Positions 5,168 through 27,040 of a DNA stretch of 64,000 nucleotides are shown here, piece by piece. A program made the translations under genes and the position numbers. The stretch covers positions 70,625 through 134,624 of the forward strand of contig JABIDK010000014.1 of assembly GCA_018651725.1 (NCBI GenBank), in the 5' to 3' direction. Numbering within the stretch: position 1 is the first letter of the stretch; every line of letters begins with the position of its first letter. The notes under the pieces were generated by a model, which saw only the letters and a program-made list of their open reading frames with translations, did not search any database and had not been told where the DNA came from. The DNA comes from Candidatus Falkowbacteria bacterium (lineage in GTDB: Bacteria; Patescibacteriota; Patescibacteriia; JAACEG01).

Positions 5168-8100
5168 ATGAAGAAAAAAGTTAAACAGTTTTACCGCATG
5201 ATTGATGGCATGGAATTTTGCTTCAATGTGGAGCACACAGAAACTTTGACCGATGCAGAATTAGGTCAATTAAAACTTTTATTTGCAGATGGCTTTATTG
5301 CTGAAACTGTTACAGAGAAACCAGGTATAGCAGATGAGGTAGTAGCTGAGGTTGGACCTCGGCTTAACTTTGAAACGGCTTGGTCGTCCAATATGGTTTC
5401 AATTTGTCATGCAACCGGCTTGGACAAAGTTACTCGCGTTGAGCGATCGAGGAGATATTTTGTTGATAACGATGTGAACAGACAAGAGTTTATTGATTCT
5501 CATCACGACAGGATGACAGAATGTCATTATCTTGAATCGCTTTCAACTTTTGATACCGGTATTGAACCCGAATCTGTGTACGATGTGGAACTTATTGATG
5601 GTGGAGCAGATCTTCTCGAGAGTATCCCTGGTATCTCCATGGATTCGCGGGATCGTAATTTTTACTACGATTACTTTGTAGGTAAGCATGAGCGTAACCC
5701 AACGATTGTAGAGATCATGGATCTGAATAATGCCAACTGTGAACATTCACGGCATGGTTATTTCAGAGGCAAGCATGTGATTAACGATGAAGAAATGGAC
5801 GAAACTCTTTTAGAGATCGTCCAATCAACTCTCGCGGGAAAGGAAGAAAATAGCATTATTGCTTACACGGATAACTCCAGCGGGATTTACGGCAGACCAA
5901 TTAATACAATTATACCGGAAAATCCTGGCTATCCATCCAAGTTTGAAAGCAGTTATCCAACTTATCATATTCTTTTTACCGCGGAAACTCATAATTTTCC
6001 AACCGGCGTGGCTCCTAAACCTGGAGCTGAAACCGGAACAGGTGGAAGAATTCGTGATATTCAGGGAACAGGAAAAGGCGGATTTGTAGTTGCCGGAACT
6101 GCTGGATATTGCGTGGCGAATTTGCATATTTCCGGATACGATCTTCCTTGGGAAGAACGGCTTGAATATCCGTCGAATTTGGCAAGCGCCCTGCAGATTG
6201 AAATTGAAGCCAGTAACGGTGCCTCCGACTATGGCAACAAATTTGGTGAACCGGTTATTCAAGGCTTTACTCATTCTTTTGATATGCGTTTTCCAAACAA
6301 TGAACGATGGGGATTTTTAAAACCCATCATGTTCACCGGCGGAATCGGTCAGATTGATGATCGACACATTGAAAAAGAAGAACAAGAAAAAGGAATGCTT
6401 ATCGTTCAAGTAGGCGGACCGGCCTATCGAGTTGGCTTTGGCGGTGGCGCGGCATCGAGTATGTTACAAGGTGACAACGTTGAAGATCTTGATTTTAACG
6501 CTGTTCAGCGTGGTAATGCTGAAATGGAGCAGAAGATGAATCGAGTTATTCGCGCTTGCAATGAAATGGGTGATAAAACTTTAATTGATGTCATTCATGA
6601 TCAGGGTGCCGGTGGTCCAGGCAATGTCTTAAAAGAACTGGTTGAAAAATCAGGTGGTTGGATTGAAATTCGCAGAATTAATGTTGGTGATCCAACTATG
6701 TCGGTGCTTGAGATTTATGTAGCTGAGTATCAGGAGCGAAACGGTTTTCTGATTTGCCCTGAGAATATTGAGCGTTTTCAAGCGATCTGTAATCGTGAAA
6801 AAGTCAACTGTGAAGTGTTGGGTGAAGTAACCGGTGACATGCGCTTTGTTGTTCGTGACGAACAAGATGGCTCAACCCCGGTTGATGTTGAACTGGACGT
6901 TGTTTTAGGGGATATTCCTCAAAAAACATTTGAAGCTGTTCATGTTGATCCGCACCTTAAACCATTAGTTTTGCCAGAAGAATTGACTGTGAAAGATGCG
7001 CTTCGCGATGTTTTACGTCTTATGTCTGTTGGTTCAAAGCGTTTTTTAACTAACAAAGTTGACCGAGCTGTGACCGGACTGGTTGCTCAGCAACAATGTT
7101 GCGGTCCTTTGCAGCTTTCGGTTGCTGACGTGGCTGTGATTGCGCAAAGCCATTTTGTAAAAAGTGGCGCAGCCACTGCAATTGGCGAACAACCAAATAA
7201 AATGTTGGTTGATCCGAAAGCAGGTGCGCGTATGGCCGTTGGTGAAGCTTTGACAAATCTGGTTTGGGCAAAAATCGATGACTTAGACAGTGTAAAATGT
7301 TCCGCTAACTGGATGTGGGCGCCAAAACTCCCAGGTGAGGGAGCGGCGCTTTATGATGCGGTTGATGAAATGCGTGGCTGTATGAAAAAACTTGGCGTTG
7401 CAGTTGACGGCGGTAAAGATAGTTTGTCAATGGCGACCCGCGTTGGTAAAGAGACTGTTAAATCTCCGCGACAACTTGTACTTTCAACATACGCAACTAT
7501 GTTGGATATCAACAAAGTTGTTACCCCGGATATTAAAAGACCGGGCGAAAGTCGAATACTTTTTATTGATCTTAGTAATGGAAAAAATCGATTGGGCGGA
7601 TCTGCTTTAGCGCAGGTTCATAAGCAAATCGGCAACGAATCTCCGGACATGGATGATCCGGATCTTATCAAACGAGCATTTCAAGCAACACAGGAACTGA
7701 TTGGCAGAGATATTATTCTTGCCGGTCACGATCGAAGTGATGGTGGATTTATAACCACTGTTCTGGAGATGGCTTTTGCTGGAAATTGCGGATTCGCAAT
7801 AGATGTAGCAAAAACAGACGATGTTCTGGCAACACTTTTTTCCGAAGAGCTTGGGTTGATTATTGAAGTTGCTAGTGAACAGGTAAAATTGGTTCAAGAA
7901 ACTTTTGATAATCACAGGGTTCCATGTATTGAAATTGGACATACCAAGAAAGAAAAACTCATAACGATTTTTTCTGATTCCGGTTTTGTCCTGTGGAAAG
8001 ACATGAGAGTGTTGCGTTCGTGGTGGGAAGAAAGTAGCTATCAACTTGAAAAACAACAGATGAACCCGGACTGCGCAAATGAAGAAAAGGAAAATATTTA

Positions 8101-8986
8101 TGATCGCAAAGGACCGAGTTATAATTTGAGTTTTACACCTCAAAAAACATCATCGGAAATTCTTCTGATGAACGATAAACCCAAAGTAGCAATTTTGCGT
8201 GACGAAGGCAGTAACTCCGATCGCGAGATGGCCTCGGCGTTTTATCAAGCCGGGTTTGAGCCATGGGATGTGACCATGACCGATCTGCTTGAAGACCGGA
8301 TTAATTTAGAACAATTTCGCGGTCTGGCTGCAGTTGGAGGTTTTTCCTACGCTGATGTCCCAGAAAGCGCTAAAGGCTGGGCAGCAACGATCATGTTTAA
8401 TGAAAAGTTAAAGGCGATGTTTAATGAATTTTATACTCGCCCCGATACTTTTTCATTAGGTGTGTGTAACGGTTGTCAGTTGTTTGCACTCATTGGCTGG
8501 GTTCCATGGCAAGGAATTGCGCCGGAGGACCAACCGCGATTTGTTAAAAATAAATCCGGTCGTTTTGAATCTCGCTGGTCAACAGTTAAAGTGCTGGAAA
8601 GCTCTTCAATTATGCTCAGTGGCATGGAAGATATGATATTTGGTATTCATGTTGACCATAGTGAAGGACAACTTGTTTTTCCAAACAAGGATGTTTTTAA
8701 AGAGGCAGCAACTAATCTCCAACTACCTGTTGCCTATGTTAATGACAACAATAAAATAACTGAAGATTACCCGTTTAATCCGAACGGATCTGCGAACGGA
8801 TTGACAGCCATTTGTACAGAAGACGGTCGTCATCTGGCAATGATGCCTCATCCGGAAAGATGCTTTCTGCCTTGGCAATGTCATTGGTTACCGGAAGAAA
8901 TGAAAGAAGAATTACGCCAAATTGGTGTGTCGCCTTGGATGAAAATGTTCCAAAATGCATACGATTGGTGTATAAAAGCTGAGTAA
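5168..8986 (+). CDS. purL: Phosphoribosylformylglycinamidine (FGAM) synthase, large single-chain form with a C-terminal glutaminase domain
   Basis: 1272 aa. The N-terminal and AIRS-like domains resemble E. coli PurL. The C-terminus has a class-I glutamine amidotransferase triad (GVCNGCQ ... HPE). The GC content is higher than in neighbouring genes. Confidence 0.9.
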   Translation: MKKKVKQFYRMIDGMEFCFNVEHTETLTDAELGQLKLLFADGFIAETVTEKPGIADEVVAEVGPRLNFETAWSSNMVSICHATGLDKVTRVERSRRYFVDNDVNRQEFIDSHHDRMTECHYLESLSTFDTGIEPESVYDVELIDGGADLLESIPGISMDSRDRNFYYDYFVGKHERNPTIVEIMDLNNANCEHSRHGYFRGKHVINDEEMDETLLEIVQSTLAGKEENSIIAYTDNSSGIYGRPINTIIPENPGYPSKFESSYPTYHILFTAETHNFPTGVAPKPGAETGTGGRIRDIQGTGKGGFVVAGTAGYCVANLHISGYDLPWEERLEYPSNLASALQIEIEASNGASDYGNKFGEPVIQGFTHSFDMRFPNNERWGFLKPIMFTGGIGQIDDRHIEKEEQEKGMLIVQVGGPAYRVGFGGGAASSMLQGDNVEDLDFNAVQRGNAEMEQKMNRVIRACNEMGDKTLIDVIHDQGAGGPGNVLKELVEKSGGWIEIRRINVGDPTMSVLEIYVAEYQERNGFLICPENIERFQAICNREKVNCEVLGEVTGDMRFVVRDEQDGSTPVDVELDVVLGDIPQKTFEAVHVDPHLKPLVLPEELTVKDALRDVLRLMSVGSKRFLTNKVDRAVTGLVAQQQCCGPLQLSVADVAVIAQSHFVKSGAATAIGEQPNKMLVDPKAGARMAVGEALTNLVWAKIDDLDSVKCSANWMWAPKLPGEGAALYDAVDEMRGCMKKLGVAVDGGKDSLSMATRVGKETVKSPRQLVLSTYATMLDINKVVTPDIKRPGESRILFIDLSNGKNRLGGSALAQVHKQIGNESPDMDDPDLIKRAFQATQELIGRDIILAGHDRSDGGFITTVLEMAFAGNCGFAIDVAKTDDVLATLFSEELGLIIEVASEQVKLVQETFDNHRVPCIEIGHTKKEKLITIFSDSGFVLWKDMRVLRSWWEESSYQLEKQQMNPDCANEEKENIYDRKGPSYNLSFTPQKTSSEILLMNDKPKVAILRDEGSNSDREMASAFYQAGFEPWDVTMTDLLEDRINLEQFRGLAAVGGFSYADVPESAKGWAATIMFNEKLKAMFNEFYTRPDTFSLGVCNGCQLFALIGWVPWQGIAPEDQPRFVKNKSGRFESRWSTVKVLESSSIMLSGMEDMIFGIHVDHSEGQLVFPNKDVFKEAATNLQLPVAYVNDNNKITEDYPFNPNGSANGLTAICTEDGRHLAMMPHPERCFLPWQCHWLPEEMKEELRQIGVSPWMKMFQNAYDWCIKAE

Positions 8987-9052: not shown

Positions 9053-10192
9053 ATGACTGATAAGTACAAAGAAGACGGTGTTGATATTGACGTGGGAGAT
9101 GCTTTTAGTAAGCTTGCAGGATTAATTGCCAGATCTACTTATGATATTTCTCCGTTTGTGAAAGTGCATGATCTTTCCAAAGGAATGTTCAGAGGCCCGA
9201 GAGGATTTACCTGGCAAAATCTTCCAAAAGGATGCATTAACACTGGAACAGTAGACGGTATTGGTACAAAAGTTGTGATCATTGTTGCGTCAGGAAAAGC
9301 GGAGACCAGCGCCAATGATGTGATAGCCATGACAGCAATGGACATTACCCGTTGGGGTGGGTTGCCATTGGTGTTTCTCAATGTTTTTGATGTCAGAACT
9401 CTTGGAGAGATTGGCTCTGAAACCTATCAACTTTGTCAGAATGTTATGGCTGGCCTAGGAACCGTTGCTAAAGAACATGGATATGTTGTTTTGACCGGTG
9501 AGACCGCTGAGCTTGGCAAATGTGTTGGATCTGAAGATGAACAAGCAAAGCTTATGTTTAATTGGGCCGGCACAATGTTGGGAGTCTATCATCCAAATAA
9601 AATGATCTTGGGTGACACGCTTGCTCCCGAACAAAGCATTATTGTCTTTGCTGATTATTTTCGCAGTAACGGCATCAGTAGTGTGCGCAGAGGATTAGCC
9701 AATCATAGAGGACGTATGTGGTGGCAAAATTCTCAAGCAAAAGAAGATATCATTGCTTGTGCAACTCCATCAAAGCAATATGATCGCATGTTCAATGAGG
9801 CTCATGGATGGCTCAATGAGCCAGAATTTGATTCTCTTGTTAAAATGCATTTGATTGTTCATCTTTCAGGAGGTGCGTTTGAATCAAAACTGGGTGAAGA
9901 TATACTTAAGCCCCTTTGTTTGTCGGCTGAACTTTCGGATTTATTTGACCCGCCCGATATAATGAAAAAATGCGCTAATTGGAGGGAAATGGAACCTCAG
10001 GAATGTTATAAAACCTGGAACGGGGGACAGGGTGCATTAGCGGTAGTTGATAAGAAAGATGAAGGAATAATGCTTGCCTTGGCTGAAAAATATGGCATCC
10101 GGGCAAGAGTTGCCGGACAAATCACCGAAAGAAAAGAGCACACCGTTACCATTAAATCAAAATTTGGCAATGGAGAGATGATTTATTATTAA
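9053..10192 (+). CDS. purM: PurM-like AIR synthetase (phosphoribosylformylglycinamidine cyclo-ligase family)
   Basis: 379 aa. It starts MTDK...GVDID.G like PurM and has the DG(I)GTK motif. A GGAGG ribosome-binding site lies upstream. Confidence 0.75.
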   Translation: MTDKYKEDGVDIDVGDAFSKLAGLIARSTYDISPFVKVHDLSKGMFRGPRGFTWQNLPKGCINTGTVDGIGTKVVIIVASGKAETSANDVIAMTAMDITRWGGLPLVFLNVFDVRTLGEIGSETYQLCQNVMAGLGTVAKEHGYVVLTGETAELGKCVGSEDEQAKLMFNWAGTMLGVYHPNKMILGDTLAPEQSIIVFADYFRSNGISSVRRGLANHRGRMWWQNSQAKEDIIACATPSKQYDRMFNEAHGWLNEPEFDSLVKMHLIVHLSGGAFESKLGEDILKPLCLSAELSDLFDPPDIMKKCANWREMEPQECYKTWNGGQGALAVVDKKDEGIMLALAEKYGIRARVAGQITERKEHTVTIKSKFGNGEMIYY

Positions 10193-10220
10193 TAAAATTC
10201 TCGTTCTTTAATAACAATAA

Positions 10221-10249
10221 CAAGCCGTTGGTTTACCAGCGGCTTTTTT
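10221..10249 (+). terminator. Rho-independent terminator after purM
   Basis: AAGCCGTTGG-TTTA-CCAGCGGCTT followed by TTTTTTT. Confidence 0.6.
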
Positions 10250-10345
10250 TCTTGATTTAAAGCCAAATGCTTGCTTGTACTTTTTATAGTTATAAAGTTT
10301 AGAACCGCTAAACCTATTATTATTGACTTTTAAGGTGAAAAATGT

Positions 10346-10395
10346 AAACTTAAATAAAATTAACTTTTTTTATCAGGTTAATTTTATTTAAGTTT
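10346..10395. promoter_or_regulatory. Perfect 19-bp inverted repeat (AAACTTAAATAAAATTAAC / GTTAATTTTATTTAAGTTT) with a 12-nt spacer, upstream of the pyrD-like gene
   Basis: Read directly from the sequence. It lies 55 nt upstream of the 10451 start. It could be an operator or an RNA hairpin. Confidence 0.4.
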
Positions 10396-10450
10396 GAACA
10401 TTACAATTTATTTTATTTTCAATTTTTAAAATCATACAAAGGAGATTAGC

Positions 10451-11428
10451 ATGAAACTTAGAGGGATTGATTTTGGTAATGTTTTTTCGGCTTCAGGCAC
10501 TTTGAATAATTTTGGTGAGGGGTGGGAACCATTTCACAGTTTGAAGAAAAAACTTTCAGGATTTGATTTTACAGGGTCTACTTTTATTTCAAAAACTACA
10601 ACAATCGATTCGCGGATGGGAGAAAAAGAGAAAGAACAAGGTAATTTGGAACTTAATCCGCAGACATTGCAACCAGTAAAGTTATTTCCCGATTGTATTA
10701 AGGTTAATTGGAGAAAAGGCGAAGTTTTAAACGCTGTTGGGTTAAGCGGACCTGGATTTGAGACTCTGCTTAGAACGGGGCGTTGGCAAGAAATTAAACA
10801 ACCATTCTTTATCTCTTATATGGCTACTCGAGCAACTAAAGAGGAGCGATTAAAAGAGGATGAAGAATTTGTAAGATTGCTTTTGGAAAATATTGAAGAT
10901 TTTAAAACTAAAATTGGAATCCAGTTAAATATTTCCTGTCCAAACATAAAAGGTGATTTAACTAGCTTTATACATGAAACAGATGATCGTTTAAAAGTTT
11001 TAGCTCGTCTAAATATTCCAATTAGCGTTAAGATTAATGTTTTGACTCCTATTGAAGCCGTTCAGAAAATTATTGATGGTGGAAATTGTGACGCAATTGA
11101 AATTCCTAATACTTTGCCGTATGGGGAGTATCCTAGTATAGTAAATTGGGAAAAAAAATTTGGACTTGAATCACCATTAAAAAAATATGGTGGCGGAGGA
11201 TATTCAGGAAGAGAAAATTTTTTTCTAGCAGTAAATTGGACTAATAGAGCTAGGCGAGCTGGAATCAGTATTCCGATTATATGCGGAGCAGTTTCTAATA
11301 AGAGCGAGGTAGAGTTAGCGCATAGTGTTGATGCCAGTGGAATCGCCTTTGCTCGTCTATCTATAGTGCGACCATCGCAAGTAAAGCCAATAATTGATTG
11401 CGGAAAGTATATTTTTCGTGACAGGTAG
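10451..11428 (+). CDS. pyrD: Dihydroorotate dehydrogenase-like TIM-barrel flavoprotein (class 1 type)
   Basis: 325 aa. Blocks NVFSASGT, NAVGLSGPGFE, LNISCPN (catalytic Cys as in class 1A) and GGGGYSG align with L. lactis PyrDA. Confidence 0.6.
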   Translation: MKLRGIDFGNVFSASGTLNNFGEGWEPFHSLKKKLSGFDFTGSTFISKTTTIDSRMGEKEKEQGNLELNPQTLQPVKLFPDCIKVNWRKGEVLNAVGLSGPGFETLLRTGRWQEIKQPFFISYMATRATKEERLKEDEEFVRLLLENIEDFKTKIGIQLNISCPNIKGDLTSFIHETDDRLKVLARLNIPISVKINVLTPIEAVQKIIDGGNCDAIEIPNTLPYGEYPSIVNWEKKFGLESPLKKYGGGGYSGRENFFLAVNWTNRARRAGISIPIICGAVSNKSEVELAHSVDASGIAFARLSIVRPSQVKPIIDCGKYIFRDR

Positions 11429-11438
11429 GAGGTAGATA

Positions 11439-12491
11439 ATGATAAAGACTTATAGAAAACCTTATAATATGCATATACATTTTCGGACAGGGCCAATGTT
11501 GATTAATGTTTTGCCTTTTACATCTATTGCTTTTCAAGGCGCAGTGCCTTTCGGTAATACTTTTGTAACAGAAGCAGATGACGTAGTTCGTTATAGAAGA
11601 GAGATTCTAGTTCATGCTCATAAAGGTTTCAACCCTATTATGTCTATCATGCTGGTAAACAAAACTACGCCTGAAATAGTTGAAGAATCTTTTTTGGCAG
11701 GTGCTCGAGTTTTAAAATGGATTCCTGGTGGAACATCCACTAATTCCAAAGACGGTGTCTCTCTCCTGGATATGAAAAAGTATTATCCGGTATTTGCTAA
11801 AGCTGAATCTTTGGGAATGATTGTTTCTGTTCACTGGGAAGCTATTTTGAATTTTGCCAGCGGAAAAGAAATCCCAATGTTATATCGAGAAGAGGCCGCA
11901 ATTCAATTTTTTGTTCAACTTGCAACTGATTTCCCAGGTTTGAAAATTGTTGCTGAACATATTACAACTAAAGAGATGGTTAAAACAGTTGAAATATTGT
12001 ATGGTATGGGTTGTAATGTAGCAGCCACTATTACCTCACATCATCCAGTGCTTACTTATAGTGATGTGTGTGATGCTGATGGTAATGTAATTAATCCTTT
12101 GAATTATTGTTTGCCAATTGCCAAGTTGGATCAAGATAGATTAGCTATCAGAAAGGCTATGGTAAGTGGAAAGCCATATAATTTTTATGGAGGAGACAGT
12201 GCTCCACATCCAATTTTTTGGAAGTCACTTAAGTTGTTAAAAGGGAAGAGTCCAAGGGCAGGAATTTTTTCTGCGCCTGTTGAAATACCGCAACAACTTG
12301 AAACTTTTGAAAAAGAGGGTGCATTGGACAAGTTTGAAGATTTTCATTCTGTATTTGGGCCACAATTTTATGGCATACCACTAAGCCAGGAGACTTTAAC
12401 CGTAAAAAAAGAAACCTGGCGCGTTCCTTATGAATACGAAGGTATTCCAATTTTTCGAGGGGGAGAAGAGTTAAGTTGGCAAATAGCCTAA
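11439..12491 (+). CDS. pyrC: Dihydroorotase, type II (E. coli-like)
   Basis: 350 aa. HIHFR, EHITTKE, AATITSHHP, YCLPIAK, GGDSAPH and FGPQFYGIPL are collinear with E. coli PyrC. Confidence 0.85.
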   Translation: MIKTYRKPYNMHIHFRTGPMLINVLPFTSIAFQGAVPFGNTFVTEADDVVRYRREILVHAHKGFNPIMSIMLVNKTTPEIVEESFLAGARVLKWIPGGTSTNSKDGVSLLDMKKYYPVFAKAESLGMIVSVHWEAILNFASGKEIPMLYREEAAIQFFVQLATDFPGLKIVAEHITTKEMVKTVEILYGMGCNVAATITSHHPVLTYSDVCDADGNVINPLNYCLPIAKLDQDRLAIRKAMVSGKPYNFYGGDSAPHPIFWKSLKLLKGKSPRAGIFSAPVEIPQQLETFEKEGALDKFEDFHSVFGPQFYGIPLSQETLTVKKETWRVPYEYEGIPIFRGGEELSWQIA

Positions 12492-21448: not shown

Positions 21449-22288
21449 ATGAAACAAGCCTACTTTATTTTTACAATTTTAATTTGCTTGCCCCTTATCG
21501 GGGTTTTTATTTTTCAGAATAATAACTTTGATAAAGAGCTTGTTTTAATGTACGATGAATTACTTTTTGATTTTGAGAAGCTGGCGAAGACAAGCTTAAA
21601 GCCTGATCAGGTTTTAGATAAAAAAATTGAGAATACGTCCGAAGACGAAAACAAAAAAGATGAAAACATTAAAGAAAAAGAAGAAAAAATCGAGTTTGAA
21701 GTTTTACCAAATAAAATTCATTACAACGTTCCTTTTACCTCGCAAGCCCCATTTCGTGATTGGAGTTATCCGTGGCAAGAGTTTTGTGAGGAGGCAGCGG
21801 TTTTGATTACTATGAGATATTTTGATGGTCGGGGAATTAAAGATAAAGATGATGCTAATGATGCTTTGCAGGAAATTATGAAATGGGAAAATGAAAACCT
21901 TGGTTTTTATAAAGATACAACTGCGACAACAACTATGAAAATCATTACTGATTTTTACGAATATGATAATGTAGAATTAAGTCATGACACAACAATAGAA
22001 AAAATAAAACAAGAATTAGCTAAAGGTAATTTAATCATAATTCCAACGGCCGGGCGTAATTTGGAAAACCCATATTTTACTCCACCTGGACCGATTTATC
22101 ATAATTTAGTGTTAGTAGGCTACGATAATGAAAAACAAATTTTTTACACCAACGACCCCGGAATAATGAGCGGTAAAGATTTTAAGTACAGTTATAAAAA
22201 TATAATAGAATCAATAGCTGATTGGAGCTACGAGAAAGAAACTATTGATAAATCAAGAAAAGTTATGATAATTGTGCGAGGTGGTTAA
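21449..22288 (+). CDS. Secreted peptidase C39-like domain protein
   Basis: 279 aa with an N-terminal transmembrane/signal segment. Cys (QEFCEEAAV) and His (HNLVLVGYD) spacing is as in Peptidase_C39_2-type proteins. Confidence 0.5.
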   Translation: MKQAYFIFTILICLPLIGVFIFQNNNFDKELVLMYDELLFDFEKLAKTSLKPDQVLDKKIENTSEDENKKDENIKEKEEKIEFEVLPNKIHYNVPFTSQAPFRDWSYPWQEFCEEAAVLITMRYFDGRGIKDKDDANDALQEIMKWENENLGFYKDTTATTTMKIITDFYEYDNVELSHDTTIEKIKQELAKGNLIIIPTAGRNLENPYFTPPGPIYHNLVLVGYDNEKQIFYTNDPGIMSGKDFKYSYKNIIESIADWSYEKETIDKSRKVMIIVRGG

Positions 22289-22360: not shown

Positions 22361-24337
22361 ATGGAAAATCCAAATTTTTTAAAACAAAAATACAACTTAC
22401 ACAACACTCCGGAAGCAGATTCAGCCGCCAAAAGAACAAAAAAAAGAACAGGCGAAAAAGTTTCTCAAAAGCCGGGCGAGAAAATACAGAATTATTTAGA
22501 TAGATTCAATGAAATTATCGAACGCAAAGATCCGGACAAAAAAGAACGAGGCATTGGAGCGCTTAAAAGAATACTCCATAATAAATTTGTTCTTAAAGAG
22601 GATGAGATTCCGCAAACATATTACAATTTACAAGGCGAAATCGCCGTAGAGGAAGGCAGGACACAGGAGCTTATTGATAGTGGCGTAGAAATAGAAAATA
22701 AAAAAACTAAAAACAAGAAAGGTGAAGAAATTGAAGAAAAAGAATTTATTTTTCCAAATAAGATAAAAAAGGAATTATCAGAAGTCATTATTGCCGATCA
22801 AGAAAGCACTATGGATAACTGGATTGATTATTTATCATCAGATGATGCTCAATATCCTGATTGGCTTAAGTATTATGCTTTTCGAAATATGCTTAACTTA
22901 GGTAAATACGACAAGGAAAGAAAAAAGTTTCCGCCAAGAGAGCTTCCTGACCGCTCGGATAAGCCAAAGAAAAAAGAAAATTTAACCACCGCCCCTTTTC
23001 CCGACTTAAATCGTGAAGCCCTGGCTTATGTTTTGGATGCAATCGAAAAGAAGCATAAAAAAGAAGGCATTAACCTGGAATTCCAAGACGAAGAAGAAAA
23101 AAATAATTTTCAAAAAATACTTCAAGGAGAAAATTTTGCCAAGCTCTACGCCTGGGCGATTGAAAAAGTAACTCCGGCCTCACAAGAAGTCTTGGAAACC
23201 GTCAAGGGCAAATGGATAAAATACGACCAAGGCACAGATCATATGCCTTTGGTTAACTCTCTCCAGGGCCACGGCACTGGCTGGTGCACAGCCGGAGAAT
23301 CAACTGCTCGGACCCAATTACAAGGAGGAGATTTTTATGTTTTTTACTCTGAAGATGAAAATAATAATCCAATTATTCCTCGCGCCGCTATCAGAATGGA
23401 GGGGCAAAGCAAAATAGCCGAAGTAAGAGGCATTGCCCATGAGCAGAACTTAGACGCTCATATCACAGATACGGTTAAAGAAAAAGTGAGCGAATTCGGA
23501 GAAGAGGGCAAAAAATACGAGAAAAAATCAAAAGACATGAAGCACTTGACTGAAATAGAAAATAAAACTAAAAATAACCAAGAATTAACTAAGGATAATT
23601 TAATTTTTCTCTATGAGATAGATGACCCTATTGAAGGCTTTGGCTACCAAAGAGATCTAAGAATCGAAGAAATCCGAAAGATAAGAGACACGGAAAAAGA
23701 TGCATCTATTGTTTTTGAATGCGACTCAAATCAAATCGCCAAAAACATAAGCGAAATAAACGAAAACACCGAAGCCTATATCGGAGAGTGGGATCCAAGT
23801 ATCTATCAAGAAATCAGAAAATACCCAAACATCAAACATCTTTACGAATCTTTTCCGGATAAAAAGATATTCAAGATGAATTTGGAGACTGATCCAAGTA
23901 TCAATTCTCCTCAAACCGCCCTAGAAGCGCTGGAAGGCGAAAATATATATTTAACAAACTGGGCAAAGGATATTTTAAAAGAAACTAAGTTCAGTAAAGA
24001 AAAACAAAACCAAAACCACGAATTAGTCAGATTTACAGTTAAAGAGCTTGGATTTCCAAACGGAGCAACAACCAAAGAAATTTACGATAAACTAGAAGAG
24101 CTTGGGCTGGATCTTTGCCCAACTGAAACAGGACCACAGCTCAGGCTAAAGTATCCGGGCAAAGAGTGGATGTTGATTGCCATGGAACCGATTGCCGACT
24201 CCGATGGCGATCCGGACGTGTTCGATCTGCGCGGGGCTTACGGGCAGCTGGGGCTCCTTGCCCATGACGCTCGGCCCGGCGACAGGTGGCGTCCAGGCGA
24301 CAGGTTCGTCTTCCGTCCCCGCAAGTTGGATTCTTAG
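22361..24337 (+). CDS. DGR target protein; C-terminal about 45 aa form the variable region
   Basis: 658 aa. The 3' 135 nt are a GC-rich repeat with a near-identical copy 476 nt downstream (the TR). The C-terminus ...RGAYGQLGLLAHDARPGDRWRPGDRFVFRPRK resembles the end of a C-type-lectin-fold VR. No N-terminal signal peptide is visible. Confidence 0.7.
   Translation: MENPNFLKQKYNLHNTPEADSAAKRTKKRTGEKVSQKPGEKIQNYLDRFNEIIERKDPDKKERGIGALKRILHNKFVLKEDEIPQTYYNLQGEIAVEEGRTQELIDSGVEIENKKTKNKKGEEIEEKEFIFPNKIKKELSEVIIADQESTMDNWIDYLSSDDAQYPDWLKYYAFRNMLNLGKYDKERKKFPPRELPDRSDKPKKKENLTTAPFPDLNREALAYVLDAIEKKHKKEGINLEFQDEEEKNNFQKILQGENFAKLYAWAIEKVTPASQEVLETVKGKWIKYDQGTDHMPLVNSLQGHGTGWCTAGESTARTQLQGGDFYVFYSEDENNNPIIPRAAIRMEGQSKIAEVRGIAHEQNLDAHITDTVKEKVSEFGEEGKKYEKKSKDMKHLTEIENKTKNNQELTKDNLIFLYEIDDPIEGFGYQRDLRIEEIRKIRDTEKDASIVFECDSNQIAKNISEINENTEAYIGEWDPSIYQEIRKYPNIKHLYESFPDKKIFKMNLETDPSINSPQTALEALEGENIYLTNWAKDILKETKFSKEKQNQNHELVRFTVKELGFPNGATTKEIYDKLEELGLDLCPTETGPQLRLKYPGKEWMLIAMEPIADSDGDPDVFDLRGAYGQLGLLAHDARPGDRWRPGDRFVFRPRKLDS
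24191..24325 (+). repeat. DGR variable repeat (VR)
   Basis: About 135 nt. It aligns with 24667..24801 with roughly 22 differences. In every one the TR base is A and the VR base is G, C or T. Confidence 0.8.
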
Positions 24338-24666: not shown

Positions 24667-24801
24667 ATTACCGACTCCGATGGCGATCCGAACGTGTTCA
24701 ATCTGAACGAGAATAACGGGCAGCTGAAGCTCAATGCCAATGACGCTAAGCCCGGCAACAGGTGGAATCAAGGCAACAGGTTCGTCTTCCGTCCCCGAAA
24801 G
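24667..24801 (+). repeat. DGR template repeat (TR)
   Basis: It is rich in AAC/AAT codons (aac gtg ttc aat ctg aac gag aat aac ...). All mismatches to the VR fall at TR adenines. Confidence 0.8.
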
Positions 24802-24819
24802 TCGTTTCTTTTTCCGCGG

Positions 24820-25224
24820 TTACCTAAAATTGCGGTTTTTCTTTTCAAAGTTTTTTAGACTATTTTTCCAACCCCCAAACATTTTACCGATTTCATCCAA
24901 CTTGAAAACAATTTCTTCATATTGTTTATTTGAAATAAATTTTGCTTCCCAAGCAACATGAATCAAAAATTTAAGCGTATCTAAAATAAGGATACACTTT
25001 GAAATTTTATCCATCTTCGTTTCTTTTTTAGAAAAATATGCGATATAGGAAATTTCAAGCAAATCAAGAAATTTATTTTCAATTCTAGCGCCAATGGTAA
25101 AGCGCGCAGTTTTCTTAATATGAGGAACAATATTAATCCAAATCAAATATCCCTCTTTGATGCGTTGCAAAATAGAAGATTTATCGAGAGAGAGAGAGAG
25201 AGAGAGAGTAAAAGGCTTCGCCAT
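24820..25224 (-). CDS. avd: Avd-like accessory variability determinant (four-helix-bundle protein, TIGR02436/23S-IVS family)
   Basis: 134 aa. ...IVPHIKKTARFTIGARIENKFLDLLEISYIA...FKLDEIGKMFGGW aligns with Bordetella phage bAvd (...IPRKHGVAREMFLKCLLGQVEL...IAEVGRILGSW). It is one of only two minus-strand genes in the window. Confidence 0.7.
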   Translation of the reverse strand: MAKPFTLSLSLSLDKSSILQRIKEGYLIWINIVPHIKKTARFTIGARIENKFLDLLEISYIAYFSKKETKMDKISKCILILDTLKFLIHVAWEAKFISNKQYEEIVFKLDEIGKMFGGWKNSLKNFEKKNRNFR

Positions 25225-26193
25225 ATTTACAATAATATCATTTCTTTTGATAATTTGCTAATTTCCTGGCAGGAATTTTTGCGAGGGAAAAGAAAAAGAA
25301 AGGATGTCGCGGAATTTCAACTTAATTTTAGTGATAACGTTTTACAGCTTCATCATAATCTTCAAAATAAGACATATAATCATGGTGCTTACCAGGCGTT
25401 TAAAATAAACGATCCGAAGCCAAGAAATATCCATAAAGCTAGCGTGCGAGATCGGATGGTACATCACGCGATTTATAGAATTCTATATCCTTATTTTGAT
25501 AGAAAATTTATTTATGATTCTTATTCTTGTAGAATTAATAAAGGGACACATAGGGCAATAAATAGATTTCGGGATTTTAGCTATAAAGTTTCAAAAAATA
25601 ATATCCGTATTTGTTGGATTTTAAAATGCGACATCAAAAAATTTTTTGCCAGCATTGATCATAAAATTTTGAAAGATATTTTAGAAAAATATATAGCGGA
25701 CAAAAACGCTTTGTGGTTGCTCTTGCGAGTTATAGATAGTTTTAGCAGTAAAAATAAAATAGGAGTCGGCTTGCCGCTTGGAAATTTAACTTCACAACTT
25801 TTAGTAAATATTTATATGAACGAGTTTGACCAGTTTATGAAGCGTGAAATTAAAGCAAAATATTATATCCGCTATGCCGATGATTTTGTTATAATAAGTG
25901 AAAATAAAAAATATTTGGAGGATCTTATTCCAAAAATTTCAAAATTTCTTGAAGAAAAATTAAAGCTCTCACTTCATCCAAATAAATTATTTATCAAAAC
26001 GTTAAATTCCGGAGTTGATTTTTTGGGTTGGGTTAATTTTTCTTATCATCGGGTATTGAGGACGACAACAAAAAGGAGAATGATTAAAAAAGTTACATTG
26101 AAACATAATACGGAATCAATTGCTTCATATTTAGGAATGCTTTCGCATGGAGATGCTTATAAGCTTTCCGAAGAAATTTTATCTAATTTATAA
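25120..26193 (+). CDS. DGR reverse transcriptase (bounds of the ORF from the first ATG; the real start is probably near 25225-25255)
   Basis: LISWQEFLRGKRKRK...KPRNIHKASVRDRMVHHA...SYSCRINKGTHRA...GLPLGNLTSQLLVNIYMNEFD...IRYADDFVII is collinear with Bordetella phage Brt, including the YxDD box. Homology to Brt begins at about codon 36 of the ORF, and there is no in-frame ATG there. Confidence 0.8.
   Translation: MRNNINPNQISLFDALQNRRFIERERERESKRLRHIYNNIISFDNLLISWQEFLRGKRKRKDVAEFQLNFSDNVLQLHHNLQNKTYNHGAYQAFKINDPKPRNIHKASVRDRMVHHAIYRILYPYFDRKFIYDSYSCRINKGTHRAINRFRDFSYKVSKNNIRICWILKCDIKKFFASIDHKILKDILEKYIADKNALWLLLRVIDSFSSKNKIGVGLPLGNLTSQLLVNIYMNEFDQFMKREIKAKYYIRYADDFVIISENKKYLEDLIPKISKFLEEKLKLSLHPNKLFIKTLNSGVDFLGWVNFSYHRVLRTTTKRRMIKKVTLKHNTESIASYLGMLSHGDAYKLSEEILSNL
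25186..25208. repeat. (GA)11 dinucleotide microsatellite, which is (TC)11 on the avd coding strand
   Basis: gagagagagagagagagagagag read directly. It encodes LSLSLSL at codons 7-13 of avd, and ERERERE in the upstream extension of the RT ORF. Confidence 0.95.
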
Positions 26194-26312: not shown

Positions 26313-26384
26313 GCGCCCGTAGTTCAACGGATAGAACACCAGCCTTCTAAGCTGGTTATGGGGGTTCGATTCCCTCCGGGCGTA
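26313..26384 (+). tRNA. tRNA-Arg (anticodon TCT)
   Basis: Manual cloverleaf. Acceptor GCGCCCG/CGGGCGT, D-stem GTTC/GAAC, anticodon stem CCAGC/GCTGG with loop CTTCTAA, T-arm GGGGG-TTCGATT-CCCTC. 72 nt, no encoded CCA. Confidence 0.85.
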
Positions 26385-26454
26385 CTGAGTATTTTATAAA
26401 ACGGTAGAGCGATAAGAATAACCACAAACCGTTGACTTTACATTTTATATTTTA

Positions 26455-26943
26455 GTGGTATACTTAATATGTATGTCGCAAACAAAATGTAAAATTTGTC
26501 AAAAAGAGTTTTATATTAGGCCTAGTCGTTTAAAGATTGGTTGGGGAAAATATTGCTCAATTAAATGTAGAAACGTTTCACAGCGAACAGGACGATATCT
26601 TTTTTGCGCAGTATGTAAGAAGAAAATATGGAAAACTCCCAAAGAAGAAAGATGTTCAAAGAGCGGAAAATTTTTTTGTAATAAATCTTGTCAAACAAAA
26701 TGGAGAAATAAATATTATTCTAGAGAAAAACACCATTTTTGGATTAATGGTAAAAATGTTTATCGGACAATAATGTTAGAGCAAAAAGATAAGCCAGTTT
26801 GTAAAAAATGTAAAGTTAAAGATGTTAGAGTTTTAGTGGTTCATCACAAGGATCATGATAGGGAAAATAATAAAATAAATAATTTAATGTGGTTATGCAG
26901 AAATTGTCATCATTTAGTACATATTCACGATAAAAAAGTTTAA
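26455..26943 (+). CDS. HNH endonuclease with N-terminal CxxC zinc ribbons
   Basis: 162 aa. It has multiple CxxC pairs and a C-terminal HHKDHDRENNKINNLMWLCRNCHHLVH HNH box. Confidence 0.7.
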   Translation: MVYLICMSQTKCKICQKEFYIRPSRLKIGWGKYCSIKCRNVSQRTGRYLFCAVCKKKIWKTPKEERCSKSGKFFCNKSCQTKWRNKYYSREKHHFWINGKNVYRTIMLEQKDKPVCKKCKVKDVRVLVVHHKDHDRENNKINNLMWLCRNCHHLVHIHDKKV

Positions 26944-26951
26944 TATATCAT

Positions 26952-27025
26952 GGCGGGGTTGGTGAAATTGGTTATCACTCGAGTTTGTGGTACTCGCGTC
27001 ACGGGTTCAAATCCCGTACCTCGCC
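26952..27025 (+). tRNA. tRNA-His (anticodon GTG) with encoded G-1
   Basis: Manual fold. G-1, acceptor GCGGGGT/ACCTCGC (one G:U), D-stem GTGA/TCAC, anticodon stem CGAGT/ACTCG with loop TTGTGGT, T-arm ACGGG-TTCAAAT-CCCGT, discriminator C. Confidence 0.8.
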
Positions 27026-27040
27026 CAGAATTTATAACAT

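Follow-up and report, generated by a model that had tools for sequence, protein, structure and literature searches.

Whether the proteins diversified by retroelements in candidate phyla radiation (CPR; Patescibacteria) bacteria act inside or outside the cell is left as an open question in Roux et al. 2021 (PMC8144416). The lineages richest in diversity-generating retroelements (DGRs) include CPR bacteria, and what their diversified proteins bind is part of the same open question. We considered this question for one DGR locus in a 64,000-nucleotide stretch of a Candidatus Falkowbacteria genome (contig JABIDK010000014.1, positions 70,625 to 134,624; hereafter, the window). The DGR target gene (22361..24337, plus strand) is an open reading frame (ORF) encoding 658 amino acids, predicted to have neither a signal peptide nor a transmembrane segment. 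Our analysis points, with a probability of roughly 0.6, to a recently active CPR-type DGR that diversifies a modular binder, in which a constant scaffold or effector is joined to a variable tail.

A complete DGR with adenine-specific variation

The target gene with its variable repeat (VR), a template repeat (TR), the accessory protein Avd, and a reverse transcriptase (RT) together form a complete DGR. The VR (24191..24326, plus strand) is 136 nt long and encodes residues 611 to 655/656 of the target. The TR (24667..24802, plus strand), which contains 39 adenines and 11 AAC/AAT codons, aligns with the VR without gaps at an offset of 476 nt. All 97 non-adenine positions of the TR are identical in the VR, and all 22 mismatches fall at TR adenines, a pattern of adenine-specific mutagenesis in which the pairing of the two repeats is far beyond chance. 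The VR has a GC content of 68%, compared with 37% for the rest of the target gene and 34% for the window, and its 24 variable codons allow ~10^21.6 possible proteins. It ends 11 nt short of the end of the stop codon. The alignment with the TR places only one adenine-driven change, at 24322, in the 3′ end of the VR (24300..24326, plus strand), making this segment a candidate for a cis element like the initiation of mutagenic homing (IMH) sequence, by analogy with the prototype DGR of Bordetella phage BPP-1. The window contains a single VR, and no additional VRs or target paralogs were found in its 64 kb.

Avd (24820..25224, minus strand) is a 134-aa protein; its gene runs antisense and is placed between the TR and the RT. 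It matched Pfam bAvd PF22296 (E=2.3e-15; 57.4 bits, with a cut-off of 40) and NCBIfam DivGenRetAVD (E=3e-18), although in the latter case the score of 66 bits was below the equivalog cut-off of 80. At a minimum length of 150 aa, the window (1-64000) has 49 ORFs, of which 48 are on the plus strand; Avd is therefore among very few minus-strand genes there. The RT (25120..26193, plus strand; longest ORF, 357 aa; RVT_1, E=2e-24) begins 318 nt past the TR. It carries the motifs LGNLTSQ ([ILV]GxxxSQ) at residue 220 and YADD at residue 252, and QGxxxSP is absent. The true start of the RT is uncertain and lies between 25120 and ~25222; a gene caller set the start at a TTG (25255), outside the overlap with Avd.

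An initial annotation of this locus, made from the sequence alone, had proposed that the ORF is a DGR target whose VR occupies its last 45 residues. The adenine-only mismatches between VR and TR, together with Avd and the RT downstream, confirm that it is a genuine DGR target, and the position of the VR agrees with the proposal. The description of the VR as very short was incorrect; at 136 bp, or 45 codons, it is of standard size when set beside the 134 bp of the annotated VR1 of BPP-1.

The population to which the locus belongs provided indirect evidence that the element is at work. A 658-aa protein that is 98% identical to the target (P0001) is encoded on a Joint Genome Institute (JGI) metagenome contig that is syntenic with the window. 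The gene order common to both is arginyl-tRNA synthetase (ArgRS), XerC-like recombinase, C39-like peptidase, target, Avd (minus strand), and RT (plus strand), followed by DUF3135 and RarA. P0001 differs from the target at 13 residues, all of which are in A-templated VR codons; the other 645 residues are identical. Because the differences fall solely in such codons, the DGR looks active, now or in the recent past.

The order of the cassette is unusual in that the antisense avd gene lies between the TR and the RT. A candidate terminator-like GC hairpin with a T-run (24814..24835, plus strand), called by a consensus scan only, lies directly 3′ of the TR and, on the complementary strand, overlaps avd at its 3′ end. 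Antisense Avd and the hairpin make one ask how the RT can be expressed together with the TR RNA. The longest RT ORF shares 105 nt (25120-25224) with the avd gene in a head-to-head arrangement, and an antisense overlap of 90 to 123 nt recurs in at least seven related loci. Within the overlap in the window is a (GA)11 microsatellite (25186..25207) that is translated as ERERERE in the RT frame and as LSLSLSL in the Avd frame. At related loci, the number of GA units is 18 (L002), 11 (L029), 8 (L076 and L054), or 5 (L001), and L013, L015, and L074 have none. The repeat could switch both DGR genes on and off by a slipped-strand mechanism.

Predicted fold of the diversified domain

An AlphaFold2 (AF2) model of the whole target, based on a 50-sequence alignment, had a mean predicted local distance difference test score (pLDDT) of 86.7. 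The model of residues 431 to 658 reached a pLDDT of 94.2 and a predicted template modeling score (pTM) of 0.88. A low-confidence linker (residues 425 to 430) precedes a middle α/β domain (residues 431 to 545; 23651..23995, plus strand) in the AF2 models, and the C-terminal model ends in a compact domain that resembles C-type lectins (CLec; residues 552 to 658; 24014..24334, plus strand). The DSSP string of the model assigns to this domain the elements β1 (552-559), α1 (571-576), α2 (590-597), β2 (604-606), β3 (618-626), β4 (629-636), and β5 (648-653). As modeled, the order β1-α1-α2-β2-β3-β4-β5 is that of C-type lectins, and the VR spans β3 to β5 with their loops.

The C-terminal model was compared by Foldseek with 350,542 PDB chains. 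The top matches were almost all CLec proteins, and the ten best were all CLec, among them the C-type lectin-like domain of DEC205, MCL, NKG2D, BDCA2, and rhodocetin; lower ranks included other snaclecs as well as Bd2740-C. The CLec matches were near full-length, with E-values of 0.17 to 1.3, TM-scores of ~0.4 (normalized to target length), and root-mean-square deviations (rmsd) of ~6 Å, and none was significant. The lack of significance of every match and the large rmsd lend some weight to the alternative that the domain is a new VR-bearing fold that merely mimics the CLec topology. So does the outcome of sequence comparisons: neither the target nor 50 of its homologs matched the CLec families of Pfam (Lectin_C, FGE-sulfatase, Lcl_C/DUF1566), and no profile link connected the C-terminal module to an Lcl_C-type tail, to Mtd, the target of the BPP-1 DGR (hhalign), or to any PDB chain. 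However, CLec subfamilies are mutually undetectable by sequence. A new fold is also at odds with ten best matches that were CLec throughout and aligned over nearly their whole length, and with a secondary-structure order that fits this fold; in addition, novel CLec variants have been predicted in CPR (PMC8144416). We regard a new fold as unlikely and a CLec fold for residues 552 to 658 as probable. The minimal CLec-type tail suggested by the initial annotation is thus supported by the order of strands and helices, by the pLDDT of 94, and by the identity of the best Foldseek matches, but the structural similarity as such is not significant (E of at least 0.17, TM-score ~0.4).

An N-terminal module joined to exchangeable tails

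The first 430 residues of the target (22361..23650, plus strand) form a conserved N-terminal module, in which the motif GHGTGWCTAGESTA at residues 303 to 316 is near-invariant. The protein begins with MENPNFLKQKYNLHNTPEADS and is strongly hydrophilic, with a grand average of hydropathy (GRAVY) of -0.96, 11.7% Glu, and 11.2% Lys. The initial annotation had recognized no motif in this part of the protein, and remote searches led to the same result: no match to the N-terminal module was found in Pfam, NCBIfam, PADLOC, PHROGs, or the sequences of the PDB, whether the query was the single sequence, a 50-homolog scan, or a family profile, and long variants of the target family likewise had no match in Pfam. 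Foldseek searches with the module against PDB and BFVD gave no match, and tblastn with its GWC core gave none in phage and plasmid records. A PcfJ-like identity of the GxGWC...RG core (GHGTGWCTAGESTA...VRGI) was considered and rejected; hhalign against PcfJ of pCF10 returned a probability of 0.15%, and Pfam PcfJ was absent from 50 members.

The module itself is widespread. A phmmer search (E≤1e-3) yielded 1,678 representatives at 50% identity, and the tails that follow the module were classified for the best 149 of these. Forty-two had the middle and C-terminal domains of the window type, 25 had the middle domain only, 15 had a tail that resembled leucine-rich repeats (LRRs) with the repeat unit LxSAxGLxLP, and 67 had other tails. 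The middle domain was detected in 68 of the 149. One protein with another type of tail, the signal-peptide-bearing P0243, ends in a CLec domain like Lcl_C/DUF1566 (E=1.3e-4 over the whole profile, below the Pfam cut-off). Judged by these alignments, the N-terminal module is a modular unit that is joined to exchangeable tails.

Cellular location of the target

Signal peptides and transmembrane segments of the target and its homologs were called by hydropathy computation. No transmembrane segment was detected in the target, whose peak 19-residue Kyte-Doolittle mean is 0.34, compared with the ~1.6 needed, and no hydrophobic core occurs in its first 60 residues, which are hydrophilic. An in-frame stop lies 10 codons 5′ of the start codon, with no ATG, GTG, or TTG in between, so an N-terminal extension of the target is impossible. 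An alternative upstream start that would add a signal peptide is therefore ruled out. Among 120 close homologs, none has a segment of transmembrane grade, and their start, MENPxFLKxKYxLH, is conserved; the absence of a leader is for this reason a property of the family and not of one gene. The initial annotation was accordingly right that the 658-aa protein lacks a signal peptide and a transmembrane segment; no upstream start adds either. Lacking a Sec or Tat signal and a transmembrane segment, the target would be cytoplasmic by default, a location to which we assign even odds.

More distant relatives of the N-terminal module differ in this respect. Eight of the 149 classified representatives have a signal-peptide-like segment directly before the conserved FLH..D..LH, and none of the eight has a tail of the window type. 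When P0240, one of the eight, served as query, homologs were retrieved from Bdellovibrio strains in culture and from further Bdellovibrionales, and all of these with complete N-termini have Sec-type leaders (e.g., "...ETFAAESC..."), whereas all named Patescibacteria homologs from the same search and one metagenome-assembled genome labeled "archaeon" have no hydrophobic leader. The P0240 contig encodes a BamB-like β-propeller protein, which suggests a diderm host. These predicted leaders indicate that at least one lineage, the diderm predator Bdellovibrio, has the N-terminal module at work outside its cytoplasm. For the CPR homologs compared here, which are leaderless irrespective of their tail, either cytoplasmic action or non-classical export, the two alternatives of the initial annotation, fits the data. 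The cytoplasmic location considered in the initial annotation therefore stands only in part: neither a leader nor a transmembrane segment is present in the target or family-wide, but the location itself is not established, since Bdellovibrio homologs of the N-terminal module bear Sec signal peptides.

In P0183, P0216, P0234, P0240, P0243, P0259, P0310, P0326, and P0336, a Cys residue occurs shortly after the predicted leader and before FLH. The leaderless CPR N-termini that were compared have no Cys in the matching region. This residue could be a lipidation or disulfide site specific to the exported forms.

One alternative to a cytoplasmic target, which we hold tentatively, is that it is exported or directed to a host by a route other than Sec and that the DGR diversifies a tip that recognizes host surface molecules. 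An equally tentative form of this alternative sees in the N-terminal module family a host- or prey-interaction protein of epibiotic CPR and predatory Bdellovibrionota. The named lineages with the module are known for predatory or epibiotic lifestyles, and surface display is a trait of characterized DGR targets such as Mtd, TvpA, and LdtA (PMC8144416). In Bdellovibrio and other Bdellovibrionales homologs, the Sec-type signal peptides immediately ahead of FLH..D..LH agree with export, as do the LRR-like or CLec-like tails, which are typical of adhesins. The compact bacterial CLec most similar to the C-terminal domain among the PDB matches is, moreover, a prey-recognition fiber tip (PMC10769870). 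However, no known type of export signal was detected in the 120 close homologs or the named CPR relatives, and secretion-system genes were not among the recurrent neighbors at 80 related loci. CPR bacteria have a Sec system, so a leader would have been a simple route of export. Nor is the conserved motif at the extreme N-terminus a secretion tag; because it is also kept behind the Bdellovibrio signal peptide, it is part of the fold. A broader proposal, which at present seems unlikely, is that the module defines an undescribed host- or prey-interaction family found in Patescibacteria with an epibiotic lifestyle, in predatory Bdellovibrionota, and perhaps in DPANN-like archaea. Its members would have interchangeable tails (LRR-like, Lcl_C-like CLec, and compact CLec-like), with Sec export in Bdellovibrionota and non-classical delivery, along with DGR retuning toward host surfaces, in CPR.

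The lack of a leader also fits an intracellular DGR-diversified sensor for conflict or phage defense, like the CLec-tipped STAND and MoxR proteins, in which the N-terminal module would signal or exert an effect. A constant N-terminal part followed by a hypervariable C-terminal CLec-like tip is the architecture of such a protein, and DGR-diversified sensors predicted to be cytoplasmic are present in other bacteria (PMC10907252). Yet signatures of an NTPase, a protease, a nuclease, or any other effector were not found (PADLOC; Pfam for 50 members and the long variants), the 80 loci have no conserved partner genes, with only RT and Avd recurring, and the signal-peptide-bearing relatives oppose a purely intracellular role. 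We consider a sensor of this kind improbable.

Proposed working of the element

If the locus is indeed a DGR acting on a modular binder, the RT, aided by Avd, would copy the TR RNA with adenine-specific errors. The resulting cDNA would take the place of the target gene's final 136 nt and thereby re-randomize the 24 variable codons, which are predicted to encode the last three strands and loops of the ~107-residue CLec-like domain. The target would then consist of a constant 430-residue N-terminal module, a small middle domain, and a DGR-diversified CLec-like tip, that is, a constant scaffold or effector with an exchangeable tail that presumably binds a ligand. The DGR would keep retuning this tail to a fast-changing ligand, such as a molecule of a host, phage, or competitor.

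Several observations weigh against this model. That the N-terminal module serves as a scaffold or effector is conjecture, since neither structure nor sequence relates it to anything with a known function. The Bdellovibrio homologs with predicted Sec-type signal peptides undercut a default cytoplasmic location. Finally, the window neighbors, the 80 loci, and one cultured Bdellovibrio genome revealed neither a ligand nor a partner gene nor conserved synteny.

Distribution of the target family and of DGR cassettes

More than 3,100 full-length homologs of the target were found, at ~50-60% identity and all annotated as "hypothetical." Where source names were given, they were Patescibacteria/CPR or generic, and a scan of species-representative genomes identified 307 target relatives across many CPR lineages. 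The only Pfam domain recorded among full-length homologs was in an 867-aa fusion. In this protein (P0074, locus L041), the frame continues beyond the usual C-terminus and PF00588 was recorded; it is probably a fusion or a read-through artifact.

In the survey of 80 related loci, the cassette of target, TR, Avd (minus strand), and RT (plus strand) was present in 22. The VR-TR mismatches in these loci were at adenines in 100% of cases for seven loci and in at least 83% for the others. RT and/or Avd were present in nine more loci, and 26 of the 80, with 4 kb or more of sequence downstream, lacked a cassette. The members that lack a cassette within 4-6 kb retain a compositional scar: the GC content of the VR-equivalent segment is 0.57, versus 0.43 for the gene body, and the fraction of A is 0.17 versus 0.34. 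The corresponding values in DGR-linked members are 0.59 versus 0.41 for GC and 0.15 versus 0.35 for A. The C-termini of cassette-less members are also equally variable at the same positions. Given this scar and this variability, the whole subfamily appears to be DGR-shaped, and cassettes may act in trans or have been lost recently.

At locus L003, the target and TR are tandemly duplicated (6001-8358 and 9107-11464), and the two VRs are identical at 135 of 135 positions. Each VR lies 486 nt 5′ of its TR copy and differs from it at 17 adenines only, and both VR-TR pairs are identical. The duplication is either a recent real event or an assembly artifact.

RT and Avd were the sole recurrent neighbors across the 80 loci, and the family shows no conserved synteny with the window neighbors ArgRS, the XerC-like recombinase, the C39-like peptidase, and RarA. 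A protein of the Peptidase_C39_2 family that has a hydrophobic segment at its N-terminus is encoded at 21449-22288, directly upstream of the target in the window. Its gene is kept on the P0001 contig and is absent beside family members in the 80 other loci, and for this reason the peptidase is probably not a functional partner of the target. Just downstream of the DGR RT is an HNH endonuclease ORF (26455..26943; PHROG, E=1e-13; weak Pfam HNH_3) that is flanked by tRNA-Arg(TCT) and tRNA-His(GTG) (region 26313-27026). This ORF may be a homing or mobile element. The two tRNAs were the only Rfam families at the locus.

Comparison with known systems

The locus is a clean, apparently active example of a very large and uniform target family, and the high-confidence structural model makes the question of its target more tractable. 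The presence of the N-terminal module in cultivable Bdellovibrio makes genetics and localization feasible, and signal peptides that are present in Bdellovibrionota and absent in CPR homologs offer a testable contrast. In the literature examined, we found neither a confident CLec-like model for such a target nor a report of DGR activity in this population. The DGR scar in cassette-less members, and an N-terminal module family common to Bdellovibrionota with a contrast in leaders, were likewise not found there.

The BPP-1 DGR (mtd-avd-TR-brt) resembles the element described here in having a VR of 134 bp at the 3′ end of the target, along with Avd and an RT. Information in BPP-1 flows from TR to VR with adenine specificity, and the VR codes for the last part of a Ca-free CLec fold. 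BPP-1 differs in that its host is a phage and its target a tail fiber, whereas the present DGR belongs to a cell and has another type of target. The gene orders also differ: target, avd, TR, and RT are on one strand in BPP-1, compared with target, TR, antisense avd, and RT here. Mtd has no detectable sequence similarity to the C-terminal module of the target.

TvpA of Treponema denticola and LdtA of Legionella pneumophila are surface-displayed by means of lipoprotein or Tat signals. Like the target, they are diversified by cellular DGRs and have their VR in a CLec domain at the C-terminus, predicted in our case. Unlike them, the target has no lipoprotein or Tat signal and no FGE-sulfatase or Lcl_C Pfam match; the LdtA-type CLec (Lcl_C/DUF1566) is matched by the tail of the N-terminal module relative P0243, below the Pfam cut-off. 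Surface-display features of the Mtd, TvpA, or LdtA type (signal peptide, lipobox, or virion-attachment domain) were not detected in the target, which had no PHROG or BFVD match.

Bd2740-C, by comparison, has been described by its authors as a Ca-free CLec variant of compact form, with a trimer similar to Mtd (PMC10769870). The Bd2740 fiber tip of Bdellovibrio bacteriovorus (PDB 8OKS) is, as predicted for the target, a compact CLec variant (~110 aa) that ends a modular binding protein at its very C-terminus, and its similarity to the window domain is weak (TM-score 0.42, E ~1.3-2.5). It differs in being part of a trimeric surface fiber adhesin of a predator that is not DGR-diversified and has an unrelated N-terminal part.

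Predicted cytoplasmic DGR targets have been described in multicellular bacteria by Dore et al. 2024 (PMC10907252), where most CPR RTs form a separate clade. The STAND NTPase and MoxR sensors of Thiohalocapsa PB-PSB1 and cyanobacteria are comparable to the target in that some are predicted to be cytoplasmic and have a constant N-terminal part with a hypervariable C-terminal CLec tip. The target differs from them in having no NTPase or conflict domains (Pfam, PADLOC) and no conflict neighbors.

The initial annotation had presented the apparently cytoplasmic target as unusual. The observation that it is leaderless was correct, but it is not new, being a known open issue (PMC8144416, PMC10907252). 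CPR clade-2 DGR targets are typically without transmembrane or other conserved domains, and whether they are genuinely not membrane-bound was left open (Roux et al. 2021, PMC8144416). Several uncharacterized clade-2 target clusters (PC_00019/20/24/27/29/40) are listed in the supplement to that study (PMC8144416). The locus in the window mainly re-identifies this catalogued type of DGR target. Like the CPR clade-2 'Cell_other' targets of Roux et al., its protein comes from Patescibacteria, has no transmembrane segment, signal peptide, or annotated domain, and carries a C-terminal VR, a correspondence of traits rather than of PC membership or RT phylogeny.

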